From Candidatus Latescibacterota bacterium (lineage in GTDB: Bacteria; Latescibacterota; UBA2968; UBA8231), in NCBI GenBank assembly GCA_965248355.1, contig OZ252098.1, positions 3,296,001-3,360,000 on the forward strand: 64,000 nucleotides of DNA, written 5' to 3'. The position numbers and the translations under genes were made by a program. Below, piece by piece: positions 35,128-62,748 of this stretch; the stretch's first letter is position 1, and every line of letters starts with the position of its first letter. The notes beneath the pieces are model-generated. The model made no database searches, was not told the origin of the DNA, and worked only from the letters and a program-made list of their open reading frames with translations.

Positions 35128-37383
35128 ATGACGAGCCATCCTCCCCGTCTGATCGAGACCGCACCCCCCGGGGTCCAGGCCAGGATCCTGGCCGCCATGG
35201 GGGGCCAGGAAGCCCTCATACAGGTCCGGGCCGACATGGAGGCCGGGGGAAGGGACTACGGCCGGCGCTGGCTGGCCGCGTCCTCCGACCGCATCGTCGT
35301 CGCCGACGAGCCCTCGGCCAACGGCGCCCAGTCGATCCCCATGGCCGAGGTGACACGGGTGCGCACCGAGCCCCTCGTCGGCGGCGGGCGGCTCGAGATC
35401 GAGCGCCGTTCGGCCCCGACCGTGGCGATCGCCTACACCCAGTCCATGGGGGAGAAGTTCTCCGAGGCGGCCCGGGGGCTGGAGCAACTGCGCACCGGCG
35501 AGCCCTTCCTGGTCAATCCTCGCCTCGAGCGCCTGAGGTGCGAAAAGTGCTCGCGGCTGCTGCCGGAGCGGGACGGCGTCTGTCCCGCCTGTATCCGGAA
35601 GTGGTCCACCCTCAAGCGCATCGCCGGCTACATGTTCCCGTACCGGGGGAAGGCGGTGGTCCTGGCCATCGCCTCCCTGGTCACCGCGGGCGCCGAGCTG
35701 GTCCCGCCCCTGTTGATCATGCGTCTATGGGACGAGGTCCTGCTGCCGGCCATCAACGACGAGGACGGCGCCGCGGATCCGGAGTCCCTGCTGGGGCTGC
35801 TCGGCTTCCTGGTGCTGGCCATGGTGGGGGTCCGGGTGGTGAGCTGGGCCGCGGAATGGGTCCACGGATGGACCGCCGCCTGGCTCGGCGCCCGGGCGAC
35901 GGCCGACATCCGGGGCGAGCTCTACCGCCGGCTGGAGATGTTGTCGCTGCAGTTCTACGACCGGCGCAAGGTGGGGGCCCTCATGGCGCGGGTCACGCGC
36001 GACACGGGACGGCTCCAGGAGTTCCTCGTCGACGGGCTGCCCTACCTGATCGTCAACGCCCTCCTGATGGTCGGCATCCTGGGGTTCCTGTTCTGGATGA
36101 GCTGGGAGCTGACCCTCTACACGCTGATCCCGGTGCCTTTCATGGTCCTCTGGGGCGCCGTGTTCTGGAAGCGCATGCGCCGGTTCTTCCGGCGCTGGGG
36201 GGAGACCTGGTCGAACCTCACCGACCGCACCTCCGAAGCCCTGACCGGGATCCGCGTGGTCAAGGCCTTCGCCCAGGAGAGCCGCGAGATCGGCGCCTTC
36301 ACGCGCCTGAACCGCAAGATCACCCGGATCGGCGTGCGCACGAGCGTGAACCGCACCGTGTTCTTCGCCACCATCTCTCTCCTCACCAGCTTCGGCGTGG
36401 TCATCGTCTGGTTCTTCGGCGGACGGGAGGTGATCTCCGGCGAGCTGACCATGGGTACGCTGGTGGCCTTCTATTCCTACATCTGGATGGTCTACGGCCC
36501 GCTGGAGTGGTTCGGCCAGGTCAACTCCTGGATGTCGCGCGCCTTCGCCGGCGCCGATCGCGTCTTCGAGGTCATCGACACCGCCCCCGAGGCCTACGAC
36601 GACGCCGGGGCGGTGCGCATGCCGGAGATGGAGGGACGGATCCGGTTCACGGAGGTGACCTTCGGCTACGACAAGAGCAAGCCCGTCCTCAAGGGCATCG
36701 ATCTCGACGTGCGCCCCGGGGAGATGATCGGTCTCGTGGGGCGTTCCGGCGTCGGCAAGACGACGACGGTGAACCTCATCGCCCGGTTCTACGACGTCGA
36801 CCACGGCTCGATCGAGATCGACGGCGTCGACATCCGGCGCATCAACCTGCGCGACCTGCGCCGCCGGATCGGCATCGTCCTGCAGGAGCCGGTCCTGTTC
36901 TCGGGCACCATCGGCGAGAACATCGGCTATGGCAAGCCGGGGGCGAAGTTCGAGGAGATCCTGGCGGCGGCCAGGCTCGCCAACGCCCACAACTTCATCG
37001 TCGCCAAGCCCGACGGGTACGAGACCCAGGTGGGAGAGCAGGGCAACAACCTCTCCGGCGGCGAGCGCCAGCGGGTGGCCATCGCCCGGGCCATGCTGCA
37101 CGACCCGAAGATCCTGATCCTCGACGAGGCGACCTCGTCGGTGGACGTGGAGACGGAGAAGCAGATCCAGCAGGCCATCAACCGCATGGTGGAAGGCCGC
37201 ACGACCTTCGCCATCGCCCACCGGCTGTCGACCCTGAGGGACGCGGAGCGGCTCGTCGTCCTCGACGAGGGGCGGATCGTCGAGGTCGGCACCCACGAGG
37301 AGCTGATGAACCGGCGCGGCCGGTTCCACGACCTGGTGGAGATGCAGCAGGAAGCTTCCAGGATCATCGCGATCGCCGAGTGA
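35128..37383 (+). CDS. ABC exporter with N-terminal extra domain and Cys4 motif
   Basis: CEKC..CPAC before the TM domain; GRSGVGKT, LSGGERQR, LDEATS. Confidence 0.95.
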   Translation: MTSHPPRLIETAPPGVQARILAAMGGQEALIQVRADMEAGGRDYGRRWLAASSDRIVVADEPSANGAQSIPMAEVTRVRTEPLVGGGRLEIERRSAPTVAIAYTQSMGEKFSEAARGLEQLRTGEPFLVNPRLERLRCEKCSRLLPERDGVCPACIRKWSTLKRIAGYMFPYRGKAVVLAIASLVTAGAELVPPLLIMRLWDEVLLPAINDEDGAADPESLLGLLGFLVLAMVGVRVVSWAAEWVHGWTAAWLGARATADIRGELYRRLEMLSLQFYDRRKVGALMARVTRDTGRLQEFLVDGLPYLIVNALLMVGILGFLFWMSWELTLYTLIPVPFMVLWGAVFWKRMRRFFRRWGETWSNLTDRTSEALTGIRVVKAFAQESREIGAFTRLNRKITRIGVRTSVNRTVFFATISLLTSFGVVIVWFFGGREVISGELTMGTLVAFYSYIWMVYGPLEWFGQVNSWMSRAFAGADRVFEVIDTAPEAYDDAGAVRMPEMEGRIRFTEVTFGYDKSKPVLKGIDLDVRPGEMIGLVGRSGVGKTTTVNLIARFYDVDHGSIEIDGVDIRRINLRDLRRRIGIVLQEPVLFSGTIGENIGYGKPGAKFEEILAAARLANAHNFIVAKPDGYETQVGEQGNNLSGGERQRVAIARAMLHDPKILILDEATSSVDVETEKQIQQAINRMVEGRTTFAIAHRLSTLRDAERLVVLDEGRIVEVGTHEELMNRRGRFHDLVEMQQEASRIIAIAE

Positions 37384-53233: not shown

Positions 53234-55384
53234 CTATGGGGCCGTCGAGAGCCGCTCTATCCCCCCGCCGCAATTGACCAGGTTGGTGTTCGTCACATCG
53301 AGGGTGCTCGCTTCGTAGGCCTGGACGCAACGGAGCCCGTCCTGGATCGTGGCGCCGGAAAGGTCGGCATGGCCCGTCCGGGCCACGCGGATGCCGTACC
53401 AGCTGCCGGGGGAAGCGTCCGACTCAGCCGATGAGCGAAAGGTGATGTCCCCCGCTCCGGCGTCGAGAGCACCCTCGACGATGAGTTCGGAACGGAGGTC
53501 GTCCTCGCCGCCCCGGGTCTCATCCCCAGGGGCGAAGGTCACCGTGCTTCCCGCGGGAAGGGTCAGCTTCATCCCCGGTGGAATCGTTACATCGCCCGTC
53601 ACCGTAACGTGATCATCCCAGGGTTCAATCCGGAACAGCTTGCCCTCCCCGGGAGCAAAGGAGGCGGCAAAGGAAGGAGAAGCGCCATGGCCGGTGAGTT
53701 CGATCTCCTTGCCATAGAGCTCCCTCACGAGGTACGAGTAGGCCGGCCCACTCAGACGAGATGCCTTCAGGTGGATGGTCACTCTCCGCAGATCGGGAGG
53801 CCTGGAGGGCTGGCAGCGGCGGTTGACCACCATCAGGTACCGGGTTCCGTCCCTGTGGGTGAAGGTGCCCAGATGGTAGTCCGACGTATCGGAGAGGGCC
53901 TGGACAAAGGAGGCCGGAGCCCGGCCGGGGAAGACGGCGTCCGAAGTCAGGCCCAACAGGGTATCGTCGTGTTCCTGCAACAACCCGTTGAGGGCTTGAA
54001 CTTCGGACCATTTGGGGGTGACTCTGTAGTATCCGTCCACCAGGCCTTGCAGGTCAGGCCTGCCATCGTCGTTGACATGGCTGGAGTACATGAAGTAGTA
54101 GATGCCCGTCACACCGTGGACCAGGGCCAGATGGACCTGAACCCGGATCTCCTCCGGCGACGGGTCCCGCAAGCCCTGCCGCCAGCCATGGGCCTGAATA
54201 AGGCCCCAAAGGGGTATCCCCGCCCCCATCGCCACCTCCCGGGCGCGACCATACCATGTGACGTAACTGTCGAGGGCACCTCGCAGGCCAGTCTCATACC
54301 CTTCTTCACCGTGCCTCGGCACGGAGAACCCTATGGGGTAGAGGTCAACCAGGAACTCCGAAGGTGAGACGGTGTCCACGAAGTGGCGCATGTATTCCTT
54401 GAGCGTCTGGTTGAAGGCCACAACGCCCGACTTGCCGGTCTGCGCCTTGATGAATCTGTTCACGTAGGCTACGCTCTCGTCCTTTTCCGTCCACCGAGGC
54501 TCGTCGTCCACGTAGAACCGCCACGGCGGATCCACCGTGATGCCGTCGTAGGCGGCCAGATCCGCCTCGATCTGCCGGTCATGGTCTCCCGCGAAGAGTC
54601 TGTGGCCATAGTCGTCGTGGGCCCTGATCTGATCCACCCACAGATCGGCCGCTCCGGTCCAGTCGATCTGGTACCGAACGAGATTCCTCCCCGCAGGTAC
54701 CGCATACCGGATCACGAAGTCCTGATAGGCGTCAGAAGCATGGAATTGCAGCTTCCGCACGCTCCGGGTGCGCAACACGGCGCCATCGGAATGGCGGAGT
54801 ATCCTGAGGGTGGCGATCCTGTCGCTGCCGGTATTGTCGTCCGTCTTCAGACGGAAGACATGTATCCCATAGCGCGCCCGGTTCGCCACGACCTGCCCTC
54901 TGCTGTTCAGTCTCTGCTCCACATAGCGCAGGAAGATGCCGGACCCCTCTGTAGTGGGGGTGTCCAGAATGACTCCGGGGCTGTGTGCGGCCGTATTCGC
55001 ATGCCACGCATCTCCGTCCCGCACTCCCACAGGATGGACGAAGACCTCAGCATCCTCCGCCTCCAGGACCTTGCTCCAATAGCGGCGGCTCTCCGAGCGC
55101 CACCCTGGAGGAACGTTCCAGCTGTACAACTGGACTCTCAGTCCTCGCTGGTGCGCCAGATCCATGAAGACGCCATTGACGGAAGGGTCATTCCTGGCTT
55201 CGATGGCGGAGTGAATCGTGTTGAAGTTTGCTTCGACTACCTGGTCGAGCCGCGCCGCGAACTGGCTCGACTGGTTGTTGAACAGCCCCGGGAACCACGT
55301 CCCGACAGGAAACTCCTGCCCAAGGCTCATCCCCGGGCCAAGAAGCAGGAGGGCGGAAGAGCGCAGAGCCCAGAGGGCGCTCAT
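53234..55384 (-). CDS. Secreted protein with putative glycoside-hydrolase-like domain and C-terminal beta-helix-like segment
   Basis: Signal-like N-terminus; FYVDDEP, DLYP, WGLIQAH, PSPEEIR..LALVHGVTGIYYF; WYGIRV tail. Confidence 0.75.
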   Translation of the reverse strand: MSALWALRSSALLLLGPGMSLGQEFPVGTWFPGLFNNQSSQFAARLDQVVEANFNTIHSAIEARNDPSVNGVFMDLAHQRGLRVQLYSWNVPPGWRSESRRYWSKVLEAEDAEVFVHPVGVRDGDAWHANTAAHSPGVILDTPTTEGSGIFLRYVEQRLNSRGQVVANRARYGIHVFRLKTDDNTGSDRIATLRILRHSDGAVLRTRSVRKLQFHASDAYQDFVIRYAVPAGRNLVRYQIDWTGAADLWVDQIRAHDDYGHRLFAGDHDRQIEADLAAYDGITVDPPWRFYVDDEPRWTEKDESVAYVNRFIKAQTGKSGVVAFNQTLKEYMRHFVDTVSPSEFLVDLYPIGFSVPRHGEEGYETGLRGALDSYVTWYGRAREVAMGAGIPLWGLIQAHGWRQGLRDPSPEEIRVQVHLALVHGVTGIYYFMYSSHVNDDGRPDLQGLVDGYYRVTPKWSEVQALNGLLQEHDDTLLGLTSDAVFPGRAPASFVQALSDTSDYHLGTFTHRDGTRYLMVVNRRCQPSRPPDLRRVTIHLKASRLSGPAYSYLVRELYGKEIELTGHGASPSFAASFAPGEGKLFRIEPWDDHVTVTGDVTIPPGMKLTLPAGSTVTFAPGDETRGGEDDLRSELIVEGALDAGAGDITFRSSAESDASPGSWYGIRVARTGHADLSGATIQDGLRCVQAYEASTLDVTNTNLVNCGGGIERLSTAP

Positions 55385-56130
55385 TCCAATACTCCATTCA
55401 ATTGATCGTTCTTGATCCGTCCCCAGGCCGCGGGTTTGACCATGGTCGTCATCTGCCCTCCCATGGGGCCCCATGGGACATCGGCATAGCTCGTCCCGTC
55501 CGGCAGATAGTCATGGGAGCCGTCCTGGCTCGTCCTGGCCGTCCACTTGAAGTACCAGTATCCCCTCTCTTCGTCTTCCAGGGCGCTCCCCGGGTTTCCA
55601 AGCGCCGGCCACTGGACGGCTCCTTCCAGCCATTGACCCGAGAGGGCAACCTCCACCTCGGGAATGTCCTCTCCTTCGGTGACGACCCACTGATCGCCAT
55701 CGAGACGACGGTGAATCTCCTTGGTGAGCCCTCCGTCCCGTCCTGCGATTTCGATCCGGTACTCCGGCAGGAAGTGAACCCAGGGAGGCTGCGCCTCGCC
55801 CAGGGTCGTATCGGCCGAGACATCGAAGAACAGCTCCACCGAGGTCCGGGTGGAACCCTGAAAGGGAGCCTCCAGGAACCTGAAGATGAACGCGAACAGG
55901 GCCTGATCCTCGAAGGTGCCCAGTCCATAGCCGTAGGTTATGATGTCTATGGTGCTGTTGGAATCGGGAGCGACGTCGAAGAACTCATCTCCCTCGCCGG
56001 GACCGCCGCCGCCCCAGTCCCGCCAATCTCCATCGACCACGAATGCCGACCTGTCCTGCGCAAGGGCCCCGTTCGCCCCGAATCCGAGGGCGCAGGCCAG
56101 ACCGACGAGCGTTCTCCACACGACTTGCAT
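55381..56130 (-). CDS. Secreted hypothetical protein with C-terminal WGxIK motif
   Basis: AAAGGA RBS, signal peptide ending ALA-Q, VDGDWRDW, C-terminal VKPAAWGRIK. Confidence 0.75.
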   Translation of the reverse strand: MQVVWRTLVGLACALGFGANGALAQDRSAFVVDGDWRDWGGGGPGEGDEFFDVAPDSNSTIDIITYGYGLGTFEDQALFAFIFRFLEAPFQGSTRTSVELFFDVSADTTLGEAQPPWVHFLPEYRIEIAGRDGGLTKEIHRRLDGDQWVVTEGEDIPEVEVALSGQWLEGAVQWPALGNPGSALEDEERGYWYFKWTARTSQDGSHDYLPDGTSYADVPWGPMGGQMTTMVKPAAWGRIKNDQLNGVLE

Positions 56131-56165
56131 GGCGGGATTCCTTTCAGGCATCCAGGAAGTGCGGC

Positions 56166-57762
56166 CTACTTGAGGTACATCAGTCTCCGGGTCTGCGCAC
56201 CCCCGGGGTAGTCCAGGCGCGCGAGATAGATCCCCGCGGCCACCGCAAGCCCCCGTCGGTCCCGGCCGTCCCAGGAGACCTCGTAGAGGCCGGCGGCCTG
56301 GACTTCGTCCACCAGCGTACGGACCTGCTGGCCCATGAGATTGTAGATCTCCAGCCGCACCGGACCGGGGCCGGCCAGGCGGTAGGCGATCCGGGTACCG
56401 CCGTTGAAGGGGTTCGGCTGGTTGGGATACAGCTCGTTGTCGGCCCGTTCGTCCGGCGCCGCCGCCTTCGCCGCCGATTCTGGTCCGACCGCCACCGTCC
56501 GCTCATCGCCGCCCAGGGTCAGATTCACGGACTGGCGTATGCCGCGGTTGAGAGGAATGCTGTGCCATCGGCCCACCACCTGGCCGTCGGCCCCGCGGGC
56601 CCGGGCCTGATACAGACCGCTGTGGCCGGGGAACAGGGTCAGCTCCAGCCGTCCGGCCGCGTCGGTCCTGGCGGTCCAGGCGTAGTGGGGGCGGCGACCG
56701 GAGATGCTGCGGGAAAACTCGACGGTCAGACCCTCGACCCGGCCTCCTGTGACCGTGGCCTCCATCTTCATGCGGGATGAAATATCCCACAACAGAACCG
56801 TGTAGTGTCCGCTTCTGCTGCCACTGGCCAGAGTCCTTCCATTGGGGGCCACCGCCACCGAGGAGACCCAGCTCCCGTGCCCCTCGAGGGTGAGGGTGGA
56901 TTCCAGCTGGCCCGTCTCCGCATTCCACAGCCGGATCCCGTCGTCATGGCCGCTGGCCAGGGTTCCTGCATCCACGAAGGCCAGGGACCAGACCCAACTC
57001 GCAAGTCCGTATTTCCCCGGCCCCTTCAAGGTTGACTCGAGCTCTCCGGTCTCCGAGTCCCACAGGCGGATCGTCCCGTCCCAGCCGCCGCTGGCCAGGG
57101 TCCTGCCGTCCGGCGAGAACGCCACCGACTCGATCCAACCCGAATGCCCGTGAAGGGCGGCCCTTTGTTGCCCGCTCGCCACATCCCACAACCGGATGGT
57201 GTAGTCCCCGCCGCCGCTGGCCAGCGTCTTGCCGTCCGGTGAGAACGCCACCGACTCGACCTCCCCCGTATGCCCGTAAAGGATGGTCTCGAGCTGGCCG
57301 GTGTCGACCGCCCACAGGCGGATCGTGTGGTCCCCCACTGCCGCTGGCCAGGGTCTCCCCATCCGGCGAGAACGCCGCCGACCGGACAAACCCCGCGTGC
57401 CCGTCGAGGACGGCCTTGAGCTGGCCGGTGTCGACCTCCCACAACCGGATGGCCCGGCGAGTGCCGGCGGCCAGGGTCCTGCCGTCCGGAGAGAACACCG
57501 CCGGCCGGACAAAGCTGGTATCGAGATGAGACTTCAAGCGGCCGGTGCGCGCATCGTGGATCCAGATTCCCACGCTGCTGGGCACCGCCAACCGGTCGCC
57601 ATGGGGCGAATACGCGATTTCACCAGACAGAACGACTTCACCAAAGCGTTCCTGGATGCCTTTGGGCAAGGGCAGGCGGGTATACTCCCGGGCGAGGCCT
57701 TCCTGAATCGTCACGCCGAGCAGCAGCAAGAAGCTGATCTTAAACACGTGGGGAGATTTCAT
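56166..57762 (-). pseudogene. WD40-repeat secreted protein with FlgD/T9SS-like C-terminal domain, frameshifted near 57334
   Basis: AFSPDG.TLASG...TIRLWD repeats continue across two frames; junction AGT GGGGG ACC AC has one extra G; C-terminal PNQPNPFN..EIYNLMGQ.VRTLV..WDGRD. Confidence 0.85.
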
Positions 57763-58076
57763 CCTAAGGACATACAATACATCATCATCAGTCGGTGCCC
57801 CCTCGCTTCCCTCCTGCAGCCGCTCCACGGCCCACGCTTTTCCCCCGCGCCGATATGTCCCGACCATCCCGAAATCGAGCCGAGGCTAGTCCTCAACACC
57901 CAACTGACTTGCGGACCTACCTCCCGACTTACTAGACTCCTGTGGTCCACACCAACGTAAACCCTCCCTCCCATGCACAAGTCGCCCCAGACCAAGCTAC
58001 TACCCCAGGCCGCGGTATGACGAAGAGACCGGGCACCGCCTCATCGACTTGGTGTCCCAACCGCCCCAAGCCGGCC

Positions 58077-58709
58077 ATGTCACCTGGCCTGATGAGCGCA
58101 GTGACGCCCGGTCCCCGAGTAGCCATCCCCAACGAGCGACTCATCCGCCAAGCGCTCCACGCCAAGTACCTCCGCAACCATCGTTTGCAGCCAGACACCC
58201 TCGTGATCGACGAGTTGGGGCTCGCTCATGCCCGGTCTCGAATCGATATCGCCGTGATCAATCGTTGCCTTCACGGCTACGAGATAAAGAGCGACCTCGA
58301 CACACTTCTGCGACTACCGCAACAACTCAGATTTTACTCCATGACCTGTGAGAAGATGACTTTGGTGGTAGGCGCCAAACACCTTCGGGCCGTCTCAAGT
58401 ATGCTGCCATCCTGGGGAGGTCTCGTGGCCGTCAAAATCGGCCCCCGTGGCGGCATCTCATTCGATCACATTCGCCCGGCGCGGGCGAACCCCAACTTCG
58501 ATTCATTCATGTTTCTCCATCTGCTCTGGCGTGGCGAAGCAGAAGAGGCCCTACGGGCACTGGGCGCGCCGCCCGCCTCGCCTCGTGCCACACGAAGAGA
58601 ACTCTATGCCGCTCTCGTTGAAGCCCTGAGCACGGCCGAGCTAACGACATTGGTCAAACGCGCTATGCGACAGCGCCAAGGTTGGCGAGCTCTTCCACCA
58701 CCAGCGTAA
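58077..58709 (+). CDS. sce7726-family protein (PD-(D/E)XK nuclease-like)
   Basis: IDELGL..SRIDIAVIN..LHGYEIKSDLDTLLRLPQQ; start may be 58092. Confidence 0.8.
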   Translation: MSPGLMSAVTPGPRVAIPNERLIRQALHAKYLRNHRLQPDTLVIDELGLAHARSRIDIAVINRCLHGYEIKSDLDTLLRLPQQLRFYSMTCEKMTLVVGAKHLRAVSSMLPSWGGLVAVKIGPRGGISFDHIRPARANPNFDSFMFLHLLWRGEAEEALRALGAPPASPRATRRELYAALVEALSTAELTTLVKRAMRQRQGWRALPPPA

Positions 58710-59754
58710 TGTGGTGATTGATGGCTACTTTCTTCCACTGGCCCAAATTGCTAGCACTTTGCCTCCTAGCGGCGCAATCACTGATATAGGCATCACCCCA
58801 CGAGTAATCCTGGCCGCGAAAGTCAAATCCCGCATCGAGCACAATCGCTTGGCAATGGGAGTGCATCTGATCCCGATTGTCGCGAAAAGAATCGCCTTTG
58901 CGCGTCCCCCACATATCCTCCCTGGTGTAGATTATTTTGCCCGCCGGCTTGACAATACGCATGTCTTTGGCCTCGAAATTCGGGTGGACTATCGTGTAAT
59001 CGCCATAGACCGGCCTCCGCATGCCGCCGGGCAGTTTCTTGAGCAGGGTTTGGTAGAAGAGCCAATCATGGCGCGGAATCGCATCTGTGCCCTTGGAAAT
59101 ATCCGCTAAAGTCTCGGGGATTGCAGTGCTGACAAGGACAACCTTACGGAAGGCCATGAGGTCGCCTAGCCGTGGCATGTAAGCGATAAGCGCCGTTGCG
59201 AATGAGTCGTAAGGCTCAAAATTCGGGGCCTTTAGATCGATGATCAGATCAATTCCCTTGAGCCCGACCTGCAAGTCCTTTGCCAGCGCAACGACCCTAG
59301 CTTCCGGGCCGTCCGCCATCAGATCTTCGAGGCGAACGAGGATCGCCGAGCCCTGTCTATCATGGGCGACCACGGTACTAACCGCCGCGATCGTAGCAGA
59401 ATCGGCAGCCAGGGGCAGGGCGGGAACCGCCTGCGCATCATGCAGCCTGAGGCCACTGAACACATAGTCGAAAACATGGCTGCCGTCATCCATACGTCCG
59501 TTGGCAATCGCCTCATTGAGCGCTATCCAAGCGGGACGCTGTCCCCACTTCTCTTGATAGCGCGTGATGAAGGGACGCACATGCTCATCGACTGTCCTTT
59601 TCGGCTCCTGCTGTTCGAAGTCGTACTCTACATCGGGGATCGTGATTAATGGCACAATCTGGTCTTTGACCGTTTGCCCGAGCCTCTTTAAGGCTTGGTA
59701 CTCGGCCTGCCGCCAGCGTAGCGCTGGAACATAAGTGTCATCACTCAACTGCAT
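58663..59754 (-). CDS. Beta-family protein (phage P4 beta/sce7725-like)
   Basis: YVPALRWRQAEYQAL, YGDYTIVHP, KIIYT, YSWGD, WKKVAINHHIT. Confidence 0.8.
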   Translation of the reverse strand: MQLSDDTYVPALRWRQAEYQALKRLGQTVKDQIVPLITIPDVEYDFEQQEPKRTVDEHVRPFITRYQEKWGQRPAWIALNEAIANGRMDDGSHVFDYVFSGLRLHDAQAVPALPLAADSATIAAVSTVVAHDRQGSAILVRLEDLMADGPEARVVALAKDLQVGLKGIDLIIDLKAPNFEPYDSFATALIAYMPRLGDLMAFRKVVLVSTAIPETLADISKGTDAIPRHDWLFYQTLLKKLPGGMRRPVYGDYTIVHPNFEAKDMRIVKPAGKIIYTREDMWGTRKGDSFRDNRDQMHSHCQAIVLDAGFDFRGQDYSWGDAYISDCAARRQSASNLGQWKKVAINHHITLVVEELANLGAVA

Positions 59755-61018
59755 CGTCCGGCTCTTCAAATTGAGGGCCCACCGTGCCTTGACCTACCAG
59801 ATCACTGAGAATGGTGTAGTCGGCGCGCTCTTTCCTGATCCGACCGGCTATGATGCTCGGATCGATCCCTAGCGTCCCGGCGTCGATTTGCACCCCTTCT
59901 TCCGAGAGCGCAAAACGTGACAGGCACTTATCCCAAGCATCGGGGGGTATCAGCGAGTCGAGGGCAAATCGGTCGGCGTCGGCCTCGACCTCGTCGGCCT
60001 CCCGAGTGCCCTCTTCGTCGAAGAAATCGTAGTGCAGGCCGTCAATAAGGTGCAGGAACACATGGCCAAGTTCGTGGAACAGCACAAACCAGAAATTATC
60101 CAGCCGATCATAGCGAAGTGTGAGCCCAATGACGGGCCGTCCAGTTTCACCCATCATAGCTGCCCCATCGAGATAGGTACCTGGCAGATGCTTTTCCGTG
60201 ATTAGAACGATGCCCTTTTTGGCCAGGAGATGACGCGCGCGACGCGGCCCGTCCTCGCGACGGGTCAGAGCTACCAACTTTCCAATCCAGCGATCGTCGA
60301 GTTCGAATTCAGGGATCTCGTGTCGCCTGATGGCCTTGCGCGCCCGATCCAGTACTCGTGCTTGCCAAGCGAGGAGGGCGTATTCGTTGGGGACGGTGCC
60401 GCTATGCATCTTCTTCCGATGGAATGCTGTCGCAAACTGCGGTCCAGCTGCGGTGAGGAAATATTCTCGCACTTTCTTGATCGGATCACCGCCACGCGGC
60501 ACCGTAAACCACTTCCGTTTGATCATGTCTTTGAAGGGAAACTGACGCCAGACCACGTCATCGACAGTTTTCCAAAAGAACACAGAACCGCGCATTTCTT
60601 GATCGGTTTCGAATAGCTCTTCGATGTGGACGCCGAGTAGGCGCGAGACGTCGATCAACTTCGCGAGGCTGGCACCCATATAGTCGGATGCCTCGTAGCG
60701 TTGGATCTGTTGCGGTTTGAGACTGAGTGCTTGCGCAAGATCGGTCTGGCTCATGCCAGAGGCGATGCGGGCCTGAATCAGGATCGAGGGCAAGCTCTCT
60801 AGCGCGAATGATTTAGCGAAGGTAATCTGTCCCGCCTTAAGTAAATCATAGTGGGCAAGCTCGGCTTCGATCTCTTCGATTTGGCTTTTGAGCGCATCAG
60901 TCTCGGCGATTTTCAGCCATTCCTGATCGGTCTCTCGCATTTGGGCGACACTGAGCGCCTCCTTCAGTTTGGTGAGCTCGCCGTTTGAGATGCGGTACTG
61001 CTTGTCGCTATAGATCAT
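59741..61018 (-). CDS. XRE HTH + ImmA/IrrE-type zinc metallopeptidase fusion (HigA-like antitoxin/regulator)
   Basis: ARIASGMSQTDLA..QQIQRYE HTH; LDGAA, LTLRYDRLDNFWF, HELGH (HExxH), EADADRFA. Confidence 0.9.
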   Translation of the reverse strand: MIYSDKQYRISNGELTKLKEALSVAQMRETDQEWLKIAETDALKSQIEEIEAELAHYDLLKAGQITFAKSFALESLPSILIQARIASGMSQTDLAQALSLKPQQIQRYEASDYMGASLAKLIDVSRLLGVHIEELFETDQEMRGSVFFWKTVDDVVWRQFPFKDMIKRKWFTVPRGGDPIKKVREYFLTAAGPQFATAFHRKKMHSGTVPNEYALLAWQARVLDRARKAIRRHEIPEFELDDRWIGKLVALTRREDGPRRARHLLAKKGIVLITEKHLPGTYLDGAAMMGETGRPVIGLTLRYDRLDNFWFVLFHELGHVFLHLIDGLHYDFFDEEGTREADEVEADADRFALDSLIPPDAWDKCLSRFALSEEGVQIDAGTLGIDPSIIAGRIRKERADYTILSDLVGQGTVGPQFEEPDDAVE

Positions 61019-61494
61019 GGCGTCACCTGTGGTTGCAGCATCGGATCGGTAAGCAGTTCGACGACCACAATCCCTTTCTTGTGGCCGCTGGACCGATCCA
61101 CTGGGAAGAACTCGAAAAAACTCTGTCCGACATCGATACAGATCATCGATGACGGGAAGAACTCACCCTGAAACCGCGCTTTCTGGGCGGCCCTCTGATT
61201 ACTGAAGTCGAGAAAAACCGGATCGAGCTTTCTGGAACCGACGCCCGTGGGATCCCAACAGGCATCGAAGTCACGAGGCTTTGGTTTGCCCGTCACATAG
61301 CTGCCATCAAGATATATCCGCAGGCAGCCGGCTGTGAGCAGACTGCGGACTCCGTCTATGAGACCATCGAACAGCGAGCGACGCCATGGGTTGGTCGCAA
61401 ACCTGTCGGCGACGGCGGCAAAGTCAGCGGAGTGCAAGCCTTGAGGCAAGACGGGCCAAGGAGACCCTGGGAGCGTGATCATGGCCGGGATCAT
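61015..61494 (-). CDS. DUF6932-like predicted nucleotidyltransferase
   Basis: LPQGLH, YLDGSYVTGKPKPRDFD (GS...DxD, pol-beta fold), KKGIV; ATGA coupling to the XRE gene. Confidence 0.78.
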   Translation of the reverse strand: MIPAMITLPGSPWPVLPQGLHSADFAAVADRFATNPWRRSLFDGLIDGVRSLLTAGCLRIYLDGSYVTGKPKPRDFDACWDPTGVGSRKLDPVFLDFSNQRAAQKARFQGEFFPSSMICIDVGQSFFEFFPVDRSSGHKKGIVVVELLTDPMLQPQVTP

Positions 61495-61497
61495 ATC

Positions 61498-61531
61498 TAC
61501 AACAATAATGTTGTAAGCGGGAGGCTGTCAA
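61498..61531 (-). promoter_or_regulatory. Leaderless sigma70 promoter with overlapping palindromic operator
   Basis: TTGACA (61531-61526), 18 nt, TATTGT (61507-61502), 7 nt, then ATG; inverted repeat TACAACA-ATAA-TGTTGTA (61498-61515). Confidence 0.75.
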
Positions 61532-62748
61532 CCTTCGCCGCCGGCATACTCGAACCGGCGATCCAAGCAGGGCCCCAACACACGGCACATGGGCAGCACG
61601 GCGAGCACGAACCCGGCGATCGCCGCCAGGGCCGTGCTGACGCCCCACAGGTCGCTGACCACGCCGAAGGCGGGGGGCGACATGGCGCCGGCGCCGATCC
61701 CCAGCGTGTAGAACAACCCGTAGGCCCGCGCCTGTCGGTCGCCGTCCACGAAGTCGCCGATCGTCCCGTAGAGGACGGAGGAGGTGCCGTTGAGGGCCAC
61801 CCCCAGCACGGGGAGGACGGCCAGCGCCAGGTCGAGAGGCAGCAGGATGGCGGCTGCGATCAGCGCCGTGGTGGCGGACTCGGTGAGGACCACGGTGCGC
61901 AGGATGCCCACGCGCTCGGCCACGAGGCCGCAGACCAGCTTGCCGGCGGCCCCTCCGGCGAAGACGAGGGCCAGCGCCACGCCCACCATCGGCAACGAGG
62001 CCCCCTTCTCCACCAGCAGGAAGGGCAGGAAGGTGAGGAAGGAGAGGCGGGCGCCGGTGTCGATCATGCCGATGACGGCGAGGAGGGCGAAGCCGCGCCG
62101 GTCGGCGATGCCCCAGCCGCGTCCGGTCTCCTCCCGGGCCCTGGGGGCCGGCTCCGCCCCCGTGGCCGCAGGCCGCCCAGGCAGCAACGCCCCCAAGGCG
62201 ACGGCGCCGCAGATGGCGAACACCCCGTACGCCGCCGCGCTCGTCTGCCATCCGTACGCCGCCGCTCCCGCGGCCACCGCCGCCGGCGCCACCACCTTGC
62301 CGAGGTCGCCCGTGAAGTTGTAGGTGCCCAGCGCCGCCCGCCGCCGCGCCGCCGGATAGGCCCGCGAGATGATGGAGGAGACCAGGGGATGCTGGGTCCC
62401 GCAGCCGGTGCCCGCCACGACGAGGAAGGCCGCGAGGCTGAGGAAGCCGCCCGCCCATCCCAGCAGAACGTAGGCGAGCCCGGCCAGCGCCGTGCCGGCG
62501 GCGAGTACGGCCCGTTCTCCGTAGCGCTCGGCAAGGAGGCCCGCCGGCACCTGGGTCGCCGCCAGCGTGCCCGCCATGACCATCTTCAGGGCCCCCACCT
62601 CGGTGTGGGTCAGGGCGAAGGCGGCCGCCCACCGGGGCAGCAGCACGTAGATGCAGTCGGTGAAGCCGTCGTGGATGGCGTGGGCGAAGCCGCCGGTGAC
62701 CAGGACCTTGCGCCTGGACCGGGCCGGGTCCTGCGGACCGGGTCTCAC
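61528..62748 (-). CDS. MFS transporter (Fsr-like)
   Basis: HAIHDG, GLLAERYGER motif A, QHP, about 12 hydrophobic segments; GTGA coupling. Confidence 0.9.
   Translation of the reverse strand: MRPGPQDPARSRRKVLVTGGFAHAIHDGFTDCIYVLLPRWAAAFALTHTEVGALKMVMAGTLAATQVPAGLLAERYGERAVLAAGTALAGLAYVLLGWAGGFLSLAAFLVVAGTGCGTQHPLVSSIISRAYPAARRRAALGTYNFTGDLGKVVAPAAVAAGAAAYGWQTSAAAYGVFAICGAVALGALLPGRPAATGAEPAPRAREETGRGWGIADRRGFALLAVIGMIDTGARLSFLTFLPFLLVEKGASLPMVGVALALVFAGGAAGKLVCGLVAERVGILRTVVLTESATTALIAAAILLPLDLALAVLPVLGVALNGTSSVLYGTIGDFVDGDRQARAYGLFYTLGIGAGAMSPPAFGVVSDLWGVSTALAAIAGFVLAVLPMCRVLGPCLDRRFEYAGGEG

Follow-up and report, generated by a model that had tools for sequence, protein, structure and literature searches.

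A four-gene cassette of a Latescibacterota genome, predicted to join parts of PD-lambda-2 and gop-beta-cII to a small nucleotidyltransferase at the place of the usual toxin

What is encoded by a compact block of four overlapping genes that stands out from its chromosome by a low GC content, and do the four genes work together? The block lies at positions 58077-61531 of a 64,000-nucleotide (nt) stretch of the genome of a Candidatus Latescibacterota bacterium (contig OZ252098.1), which was analyzed as a whole and is referred to here as the window. Three genes on the minus strand encode a DUF6932 protein, a fusion of an XRE-type helix-turn-helix (HTH) domain with an M78 peptidase (XRE-M78) and a Beta protein; these face a plus-strand gene for a nuclease-like protein of the cII/sce7726 family. 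An initial annotation, made from the letters of the DNA, had proposed one autoregulated defense system of a kind not previously characterized. The evidence presented below indicates that the cassette is probably a horizontally acquired four-gene anti-phage module, of abortive-infection and toxin-antitoxin-like character, that belongs to the class of PD-lambda-2 and gop-beta-cII.

All four open reading frames (ORFs) at 58077-61531 are intact, and the positions and families given to them in the initial annotation were borne out by matches to Pfam, NCBIfam and PADLOC, the last being used as a set of protein models and not through its system-calling rules. Gene 1 (61015-61494, minus strand) encodes a DUF6932 protein of 159 residues (PF22014, 5.6e-30). 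Gene 2 (59741-61018, minus strand) encodes a 425-residue protein in which HTH_3 (3.8e-10; residues ~80-140) is fused to Peptidase_M78 (1.3e-6), an ImmA/IrrE-type zinc peptidase domain with its HExxH motif at residues 315-319. Gene 3 (minus strand) encodes Beta, also named TIM-B (PF14350, 2.6e-77), and extends over 58663-59754 from an ATG codon (363 residues) or to 59769 from a TTG codon (368 residues). Gene 4 (58077-58709, plus strand, with an alternative start at 58092 within an ORF open from 57942) encodes a protein of ~205-210 residues that matches the sce7726 family (NF033832, 3.5e-46; 157.5 bits, with the cut-off at 70). The overlaps described for these genes were confirmed: the stop of gene 1 and the start of gene 2 share ATGA, gene 2 and Beta overlap by 14-29 nt according to the Beta start chosen, and the convergent 3′ ends of Beta and gene 4 share 47 nt on opposite strands (58663-58709). 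The motifs that had been picked out (GS..DxD, HExxH and D...ExK) are likewise conserved. Invariant residues are G64, S65, D75, E111, K140 and G141 in 52 DUF6932 copies, with D77 retained in at least 90%; H315, E316, H319, H323 and E345 in 50 XRE-M78 copies; and E46, D57, E69, I70 and K71 in 51 sce7726 copies.

The distribution of the cassette was established by a genome scan, with one genome per species, using an alignment of 14 XRE-M78 proteins. At least 600 matches were obtained, and the best 80 loci, with 35-90% identity and drawn from 14 phyla (53 of the 80 from Pseudomonadota), were examined; given that these are the nearest relatives of the query and not a sample of the whole family, the counts that follow do not describe the family at large. 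XRE-M78 relatives are numerous: of 8000 candidates scored, 4289 passed E ≤ 1e-10, and the top 120 all have at least 66% identity. Six-frame ORFs of the 80 loci were searched by iterated profiles seeded from the window proteins. All four genes were found intact, in identical order and orientation, in 66 of the 80 loci, and in a further two with Beta split into two ORFs; two loci (L056 and L084) are truncated by a contig end. Elsewhere, the DUF6932 and XRE genes stand alone with no trace of Beta or the nuclease gene (three loci), with a partial Beta (two) or with Beta but without the nuclease gene (two), and the XRE gene is accompanied by a partial Beta (two) or by the nuclease gene (one, L050). 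Between the XRE stop and the Beta start there is overlap, or a gap of at most 21 nt, in all 40 pairs compared, and the 3′ overlap of Beta with the nuclease gene recurs at 29-95 nt in each of the 69 loci that hold both genes (47 nt in 31 and 44 nt in 11). Across 45 loci, identity to the window copies co-varies among the four proteins (Spearman 0.70-0.89, with rho 0.89 for XRE versus Beta), a correlation to which relatedness alone could contribute in part. The DUF6932/XRE and Beta/sce7726 pairs co-occur well beyond this genome. Taken with the one conserved promoter-operator that precedes the first gene, the constant order supports the view that the four genes act as one predicted unit, as the initial annotation had supposed.

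The promoter-operator (61499-61531, minus strand) reads TTGACA-N11-ACAACA-TTAT-TGTTGT-AGAT-ATG over 61531-61492. It combines a -35 hexamer, TTGACA (61531-61526), with a -10-like TATTGT (61507-61502) at a spacing of 18 nt, which is the best sigma-70-like site in 57300-61800 (10 of 12 positions matched), and a palindrome, ACAACA-TTAT-TGTTGT (61514-61499), that stops 4 nt short of the ATG at 61494. The right-hand limit of the block as initially drawn, 61531, is the first base of this -35 hexamer. When the upstream DNA of 51 DUF6932 copies was aligned (one further row was too short), 41 were found to have the pattern ACAA[CT]-N5-7-[AG]TTGT no more than 45 nt away from the start codon, and near-variants were seen in several of the remaining ten. 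In every one of the 41 bearing copies the pattern ends 3-5 nt before the start codon, and in 31 of them a TTGAC-like hexamer begins 16 nt upstream. The pattern had 138 matches on both strands of the 1.91 Mb that make up the 80 loci, with approximately one palindromic site per locus, and it is retained in copies whose proteins are just 36-50% identical to those of the window. Given that the -10 element lies inside the palindrome and that no room is left for a ribosome-binding site, the HTH of gene 2 would repress the operon at the palindrome, and the mRNA of genes 1-3 is predicted to be leaderless. The autoregulation claimed for the locus is plausible.

The closest characterized relative of genes 1-3 is PD-lambda-2 of Escherichia coli ECOR42, a validated anti-phage system found by selection for phage resistance (Vassallo 2022, PMC9519451). 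Its components are A, a HigB-like protein (PF09907), B, an Xre-peptidase (PF06114), and C, a PF14350 protein (PMC9519451, Table S4). According to that study (PMC9519451), B is toxic when overexpressed alone and is rescued by the upstream A, whereas C is dispensable for neutralization but required for defense against lambda-vir, with an abortive-infection phenotype. The initial annotation had cast the nucleotidyltransferase and/or the nuclease as effector, restrained by XRE-ImmA and Beta; those roles are uncertain, given that in PD-lambda-2 it is B itself that is toxic and the Beta component that is unneeded for neutralization. Both systems have a small upstream gene, an XRE-HTH/M78 fusion and then a Beta_protein gene downstream on the same strand. 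The gene 2 protein matches the PADLOC model PD-Lambda-2_B (PDLC03982) at 6.9e-77, with weaker matches to capP (1.3e-7) and capH (2.4e-4), and Beta matches PD-Lambda-2_C (PDLC03983) at 1.4e-43. The first genes differ, however, since A is HigB-like and gene 1 encodes DUF6932 instead, for which the PD-Lambda-2_A model gave no match even at E ≤ 10; an annotation rule that demands HigB as component A would fail on this variant.

One published PD-lambda-2 primer led to an E. coli chromosomal locus with HigB, ImmA/IrrE and Beta genes. The gene 2 protein is 34% identical over 340 residues (3e-53) to the ImmA/IrrE protein of this locus, and the Beta proteins are 23% identical. The former alignment spans residues 88-414; given that the HigB-type protein lacks a counterpart to the first ~87 residues of gene 2, we infer that the N-terminal ~85 form a partner-specific part. 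Upstream of HigB (L099, 4680-4735) lies TTGACA-N11-GAACAT-TATG-ATGTTC, with the same -35, 11-nt spacing and 6-4-6 palindrome geometry as in the cassette; the half-sites differ, and the leader is ~20 nt long in the E. coli operon as compared with 4 nt in the cassette. The gene that follows Beta in the E. coli locus was considered as a cII relative and rejected (hhalign 0.07%). The cloned region from which PD-lambda-2 functions reaches 387 and 396 bp past the system ORFs at its two ends (PMC9519451, Table S2). Since these flanks are shorter than the ~630-nt nuclease gene and no cII homologue adjoins, a fourth gene is not needed for PD-lambda-2.

Genes 3 and 4 have their counterparts in phage P4, where the order in the sequence record is gop (plus), beta (plus) and a convergent cII (minus), the latter two being named “beta family” and “sce7726 family” in RefSeq. 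P4 Beta neutralizes the Gop toxin. Protection by gop-beta-cII against lambda and P1 has been shown by phage challenge (Rousset 2022, PMC9122126), and killing by the system is reported to be triggered by a phage gene (bioRxiv 10.1101/2023.04.06.535777). Both Beta and cII are homologous between P4 and the cassette, and convergent in both. Profile comparison with hhalign related gene 3 to P4 beta (97.0%, 1.1e-10, 306 columns) and gene 4 to P4 cII (99.35%, 6.4e-21), in agreement with the PADLOC P4 beta model for gene 3 (5.7e-13), the PADLOC P4 “cll” model for gene 4 (9.9e-27) and scores of 0.96-0.97 for gene 4 with Atlas clusters that carry PF26915 (Phage_P4_cII). The upstream partners differ: P4 has Gop and no XRE-M78 gene, the cassette has DUF6932 and XRE-M78, and the PADLOC gop model matched none of the four cassette proteins at E ≤ 0.01. 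The junctions also differ. In the P4 record (L100, 1718-1749), the annotated beta and cII genes are separated by 27 nt, and a putative cII terminator is placed between the two, whereas the genes overlap in the cassette and in all 69 loci noted above, and no terminator-like site was found within the 58663-58709 overlap.

An AlphaFold2 (AF2) model of Beta was of high quality (predicted local distance difference test [pLDDT], 95.0; predicted template modeling score [pTM], 0.93) and identifies the modeled fold as a TIM barrel. A Foldseek search of the Protein Data Bank (PDB) returned 68 matches at E ≤ 0.001 with TM-scores of 0.27-0.44, and nearly all of the rows listed were enzymes with a TIM barrel, aldolases and triosephosphate isomerases among them. 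In gene 4, the invariant E46...D57...E69-I70-K71 is the signature of a predicted PD-(D/E)xK nuclease. When the alignments of DUF6932, sce7726 and Beta were used as profiles against PDB sequences, no usable match was obtained, and a ferredoxin receptor at E = 0.59 was the only hit; a tblastn search of phage records with Beta matched five records only, at 24-25% identity; and in PHROGs the families matched by genes 1, 3 and 4 were all of unknown function.

The statement that no characterized system combines these parts does not hold, given that genes 2-3 match PD-lambda-2 B-C and genes 3-4 match P4 beta-cII, and the architecture has already been predicted in print. An October 2026 preprint renames Beta as TIM-B and predicts “TIM-B systems” computationally, with HigB, a restriction endonuclease (REase), a “Pol-beta effector” and others as partners (bioRxiv 10.64898/2026.10.19.760177). 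In this preprint, variable enzymes at the upstream position (HigB, GNAT, RES and sirtuin) are read as effectors, a metallopeptidase whose HTH is N-terminal lies between effector and TIM-B, and the REase gene is convergent and overlapping; TIM-B is predicted to act as a negative regulator, derepression to occur by proteolysis and the two strands to be expressed alternatively (bioRxiv 10.64898/2026.10.19.760177). The cassette agrees with this arrangement gene for gene, and its modeled Beta agrees in fold. The “Pol-beta effector” may correspond to DUF6932. The preprint links TIM-B to deazaguanine transglycosylases, and no such enzyme was present among the 49 Foldseek ranks listed of the 68 matches to Beta, so that the link was not reproduced there. 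The operator and the leaderless start are features of the cassette that are not reported in the available text of the preprint.

XRE HTH domains paired with M78 (COG2856) zinc peptidases are also found in ImmR-ImmA, DdrO-IrrE and CapH-CapP. In DdrO-IrrE the peptidase is reported to cut the repressor, which leads to derepression. In ImmR-ImmA and CapH-CapP, too, the peptidase cleaves the repressor to derepress its targets, and such pairs (ImmA/ImmR) regulate the induction of prophages and of integrative and conjugative elements (ICEs). The two functions are carried by separate proteins in these switches, whereas both domains are fused in gene 2; and no ICE, DNA-repair regulon or cyclic oligonucleotide-based antiphage signaling system (CBASS) adjoins the cassette, unlike the split repressor/peptidase switches. 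A CapH/CapP-type regulator of CBASS was considered for gene 2 and rejected, there being no CBASS genes near the cassette.

In the cassette, DUF6932 holds the position that HigB has in PD-lambda-2 and Gop in P4. The protein is probably a divergent, active nucleotidyltransferase, as judged from its residues. Its conserved GS...DxD...E meets the Pol-beta pattern hG[GS]...[DE]x[DE]...third carboxylate, and in the AF2 model (pLDDT 95.0, pTM 0.89) strands 59-63, 77-80 and 111-114 have the signature residues at their ends, a placement as in nucleotidyltransferases of the Pol-beta type. A large share of the weak, non-significant Foldseek matches in the PDB are of Pol-beta fold (AadA, MNT, HI0073, Pol lambda/beta/mu, TdT and TUTases), and MNT antitoxin structures (7ae2_B, 7ae9_G, 6m6w_F and 7bxo_E) are among them, also below significance. 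When PF22014 was excluded, the nearest Atlas clusters were NTP_transf_2/Polbeta (0.83-0.84), which is a lead only. A Pfam scan at E ≤ 0.01 found no family besides DUF6932. The GS...DxD...E signature and small size are shared with MNT of HEPN-MNT and with MenT/AbiEii, with no significant sequence or structure match to either. An assignment of the locus as a HEPN-MNT system was rejected, since no HEPN family was found in the Pfam scan of the four proteins.

How the cassette came to its present site is suggested by its composition and surroundings. The window has an overall GC content of 69%, which falls to 0.53-0.64 across 57400-61600; it is 0.69-0.76 on the side of the two major facilitator superfamily (MFS) transporter genes, in which high GC resumes past 61528, and 0.70-0.745 ahead of 53200. 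At third codon positions (GC3) all four cassette genes have 0.64-0.66, as compared with 0.89 and 0.94 in the two adjoining MFS genes and 0.88-0.97 in flanking genes. The shift that led to the block being called a lower-GC island is therefore real, but the low-GC zone is wider than was drawn and includes 53400-56200 (GC 0.61-0.64), which holds other genes. For MurD of this high-GC host, the closest named relatives are MAG-derived proteins of Gemmatimonadota and Latescibacterota, at 53-57% identity. The ~3.4-kb cassette sits between a WD40 gene and an MFS gene. A blastn comparison with the closest relative, a contig of a Latescibacterota metagenome-assembled genome (MAG; L011), showed similarity limited to 58121-61516, with 84% identity over 3398 nt; outside the cassette, the sole blastn match to any of the loci compared was an 81-nt stretch (37051-37131) shared with a locus on a Rhizobium plasmid (L007). 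The XRE-M78 proteins were also placed in a quick maximum-likelihood tree, where the window and Latescibacterota copies pair with an SH-like approximate likelihood ratio (SH-aLRT) of 100; the pair is nested in a supported clade of mixed membership, from Pseudomonadota, Rhodothermota, Acidobacteriota and Binatota, which fits transfer between phyla. No tRNA genes were present in the window to mark island borders, no direct or inverted repeats bracketing the cassette were found, and an Rfam search of 57000-62000 at E ≤ 0.1 gave no match. Overall, the cassette appears to be a discrete, horizontally acquired and self-contained mobile unit.

Copies on other replicons are consistent with such a history. 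Plasmids of Sinorhizobium terangae and Agrobacterium fabrum carry all four as annotated genes, which in the latter are flanked by a reverse-transcriptase/ATPase/helicase cluster and a SIR2 gene, and other copies adjoin integrases, type IV secretion system genes, relaxases or Tn7 genes. For complete cassettes, 125 flank ORFs were chosen and 119 scanned after six duplicates from near-identical loci had been dropped; 68 of the 119 had a Pfam match at E ≤ 1e-5, of which 17 were to mobile-element families and 11 to defense or toxin-antitoxin families, as sorted by the author with no control set. The defense and toxin-antitoxin families include TIR, HipA, AbiEii, AbiEi, Abi_2, KwaB, RT and Mrr.

Some copies and neighbors deserve separate mention. 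In Acinetobacter plasmids that carry blaNDM-1 (L004, 4294-6201; H72-H74), the cassette Beta is in two pieces ~10 kb apart, with an IS30-family transposase and the NDM-1 region between them. One Terriglobia MAG has the cassette on two contigs (L031 and L032) with four proteins that score identically; a Phage_integrase ORF adjoins each copy, suggesting that an integrative element is carried in duplicate. In a Gammaproteobacteria MAG, one flank ORF (L029, 9634-11322) matches Pfam Binary_toxB (5e-13 and 9.4e-8). Within the window, 53234-56151 (minus strand) holds two ORFs of 746 and 256 residues without a Pfam family, with GC3 of 0.74-0.76 against 0.88-0.97 in their neighbors, and resembles another patch of foreign DNA next to the cassette. 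The adjacent WD40/FlgD_ig gene (56166-57867, minus strand) spans two frames, with a signal-peptide-like start and the first WD40 repeats at 56944-57867 and the remainder at 56166-57512, reflecting either a frameshift or an assembly error.

These features are most likely those of an autorepressed module of the abortive-infection type, for which the following working model can be drawn. The HTH of gene 2 would bind the palindrome and hold the leaderless three-gene operon at a low level, while the DUF6932 nucleotidyltransferase and XRE-M78, translationally coupled through ATGA, would form a mutually neutralizing pair. A phage cue would activate the M78 peptidase, as in ImmA/ImmR, IrrE/DdrO and CapP/CapH; the activated peptidase would cut the repressor module, and the operon would be derepressed and the effector activities freed. 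The nucleotidyltransferase might then modify a cellular target such as tRNA or protein and stop growth. Given that Beta is needed for PD-lambda-2 defense and neutralizes Gop in P4, its TIM barrel may be a licensing or sensing component. The convergent PD-(D/E)xK nuclease would be a second, DNA-directed effector, whose expression the overlapping 3′ ends would balance against that of the operon. The direction of control and the choice of effector protein in this model are what we infer from the parts and their relatives.

Several observations weigh against the model or against the assignment as a four-gene anti-phage module. The selection of loci as nearest relatives of the query, described above, is one. 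The nucleotidyltransferase fold is deduced from motifs and weak matches: the DUF6932 model had no Foldseek match at E ≤ 0.001 in the PDB (best 0.57) or in BFVD (best 0.16), and the DUF6932 alignment, used as a profile, matched no PDB sequence. PD-lambda-2 is without a cII-type gene, whereas the cassette has one. The PADLOC candidate pair PDC-M63AB, to which the cassette is linked by a weak match of the PDC-M63A model to DUF6932 (5.9e-8, the only PADLOC model matched by this protein), gave no defense in one E. coli strain against 10 phages (bioRxiv 10.1101/2024.12.20.629700). No experiment on any DUF6932-bearing version was found in the literature, and the term DUF6932 was absent from the papers retrieved by the literature search. 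No neighboring defense or mobility gene was seen among the window ORFs scanned. Finally, an XRE-M78 gene is accompanied in L050 (6001-8185) by a nuclease gene with intact E/D/ExK and with neither DUF6932 nor Beta, and an intact nuclease without an adjoining Beta speaks against Beta as its obligatory antidote.

The main uncertainty is whether gene 1 is a weapon or a safety catch. The rescue of B by A in PD-lambda-2 favors a safety catch, and the variable enzymes at the upstream position favor a weapon. Were gene 1 a safety catch, DUF6932 would be an MntA-like enzymatic antidote that nucleotidylates XRE-M78 or the nuclease, and the effector would be the peptidase and/or the nuclease. The PD-lambda-2 precedent, the minimal nucleotidyltransferase size of DUF6932 (159 residues), the MNT antitoxins and HI0073 among its weak structural matches and the existence of XRE-M78 without DUF6932 in three complete loci (L050, L059 and L089) are all compatible with such a role, which is nonetheless unlikely, given that the structural matches are non-significant, that no HEPN domain is present in the four proteins and that the TIM-B preprint reads the variable upstream enzymes as effectors.

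A related and distinctly unlikely possibility is that DUF6932/XRE-M78 is a portable sensor-switch with swappable back ends, in which the nucleotidyltransferase would be a covalent regulator of the peptidase-repressor or of the nuclease, and not a classical toxin or signal synthase. On plasmids of Tolypothrix, Roseovarius and Rhizobium, DUF6932 and a long XRE gene are followed by DUF4186 and radical SAM genes, and these loci (L095, 3501-7069; L097, 3432-6989; L098, 3468-6994) have an M78 match on the XRE gene in two of three cases. Given that DUF4186 and the radical SAM gene stand in place of Beta and cII, the DUF6932/XRE front pair seems to be reused with another back end, a point that also counts against a fixed four-gene module. 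If true, the switch would be a control layer of a new, enzymatic kind in abortive infection, and its mRNA would be leaderless and self-repressed.

The same plasmids bear on whether two independent two-gene modules, a DUF6932/XRE-M78 dyad and a P4-type Beta/cII pair, merely lie side by side. Each pair is found without the other on plasmids or phage: Beta and sce7726 occur without genes 1-2 on E. coli pSTEC1024_3, in phage Rac-SA53 and on Rhodococcus and Bacillus plasmids, which again goes against a single module, and, of 29 plasmid records, 18 have a sce7726 annotation under the Beta match. Other pairings exist, with XRE-M78 and Beta but no DUF6932 by six-frame profile search on Sulfitobacter and Rhizobium plasmids, beside Gabija-like or HipA genes, and HigB with XRE-M78 but no Beta on Paraburkholderia and Limnohabitans plasmids. 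Besides the three loci of the 80 with DUF6932 and XRE only, three more keep part of Beta, one of them cut by a contig end. Against this stand the 66 loci with the four genes intact together, the overlap or close spacing of XRE and Beta in all 40 pairs, the one operator-bearing promoter per locus, the correlated divergence of XRE and Beta and the requirement in PD-lambda-2 for the Beta component in defense by the A-B pair. Two separate modules are accordingly very unlikely. The notion of an addiction or maintenance module, or of an ImmR/ImmA-type mobile-element switch, which would stabilize or induce its carrier element without an anti-phage role, draws on the many plasmid copies (82 plasmid records match the XRE-M78 protein), on the mobile-element families found for 17 of the 68 flank ORFs that matched Pfam and on the control of ICE and prophage induction by ImmA/ImmR, but is highly improbable, since the conserved unit is just 3.4 kb and moves without a fixed mobility gene, no mobility gene lies within 20 kb among the window ORFs scanned and the closest characterized relatives were found by phage-resistance selection and phage challenge.

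The cassette thus appears, from comparison of its genes, to be a widespread variant of PD-lambda-2 and gop-beta-cII with a small predicted nucleotidyltransferase in the usual toxin position. Both of these systems are validated in defense and neither has a known mechanism; the cassette joins parts of both and has, in place of the upstream partner, an enzyme whose catalytic signature is clear, in a gene order that is nearly unchanged from Proteobacteria to Chloroflexota, Planctomycetota and Actinomycetota. It may therefore serve as a handle on the role of Beta, on the reason for the convergent overlapping nuclease and on whether the upstream gene of such systems is a weapon or a safety catch.

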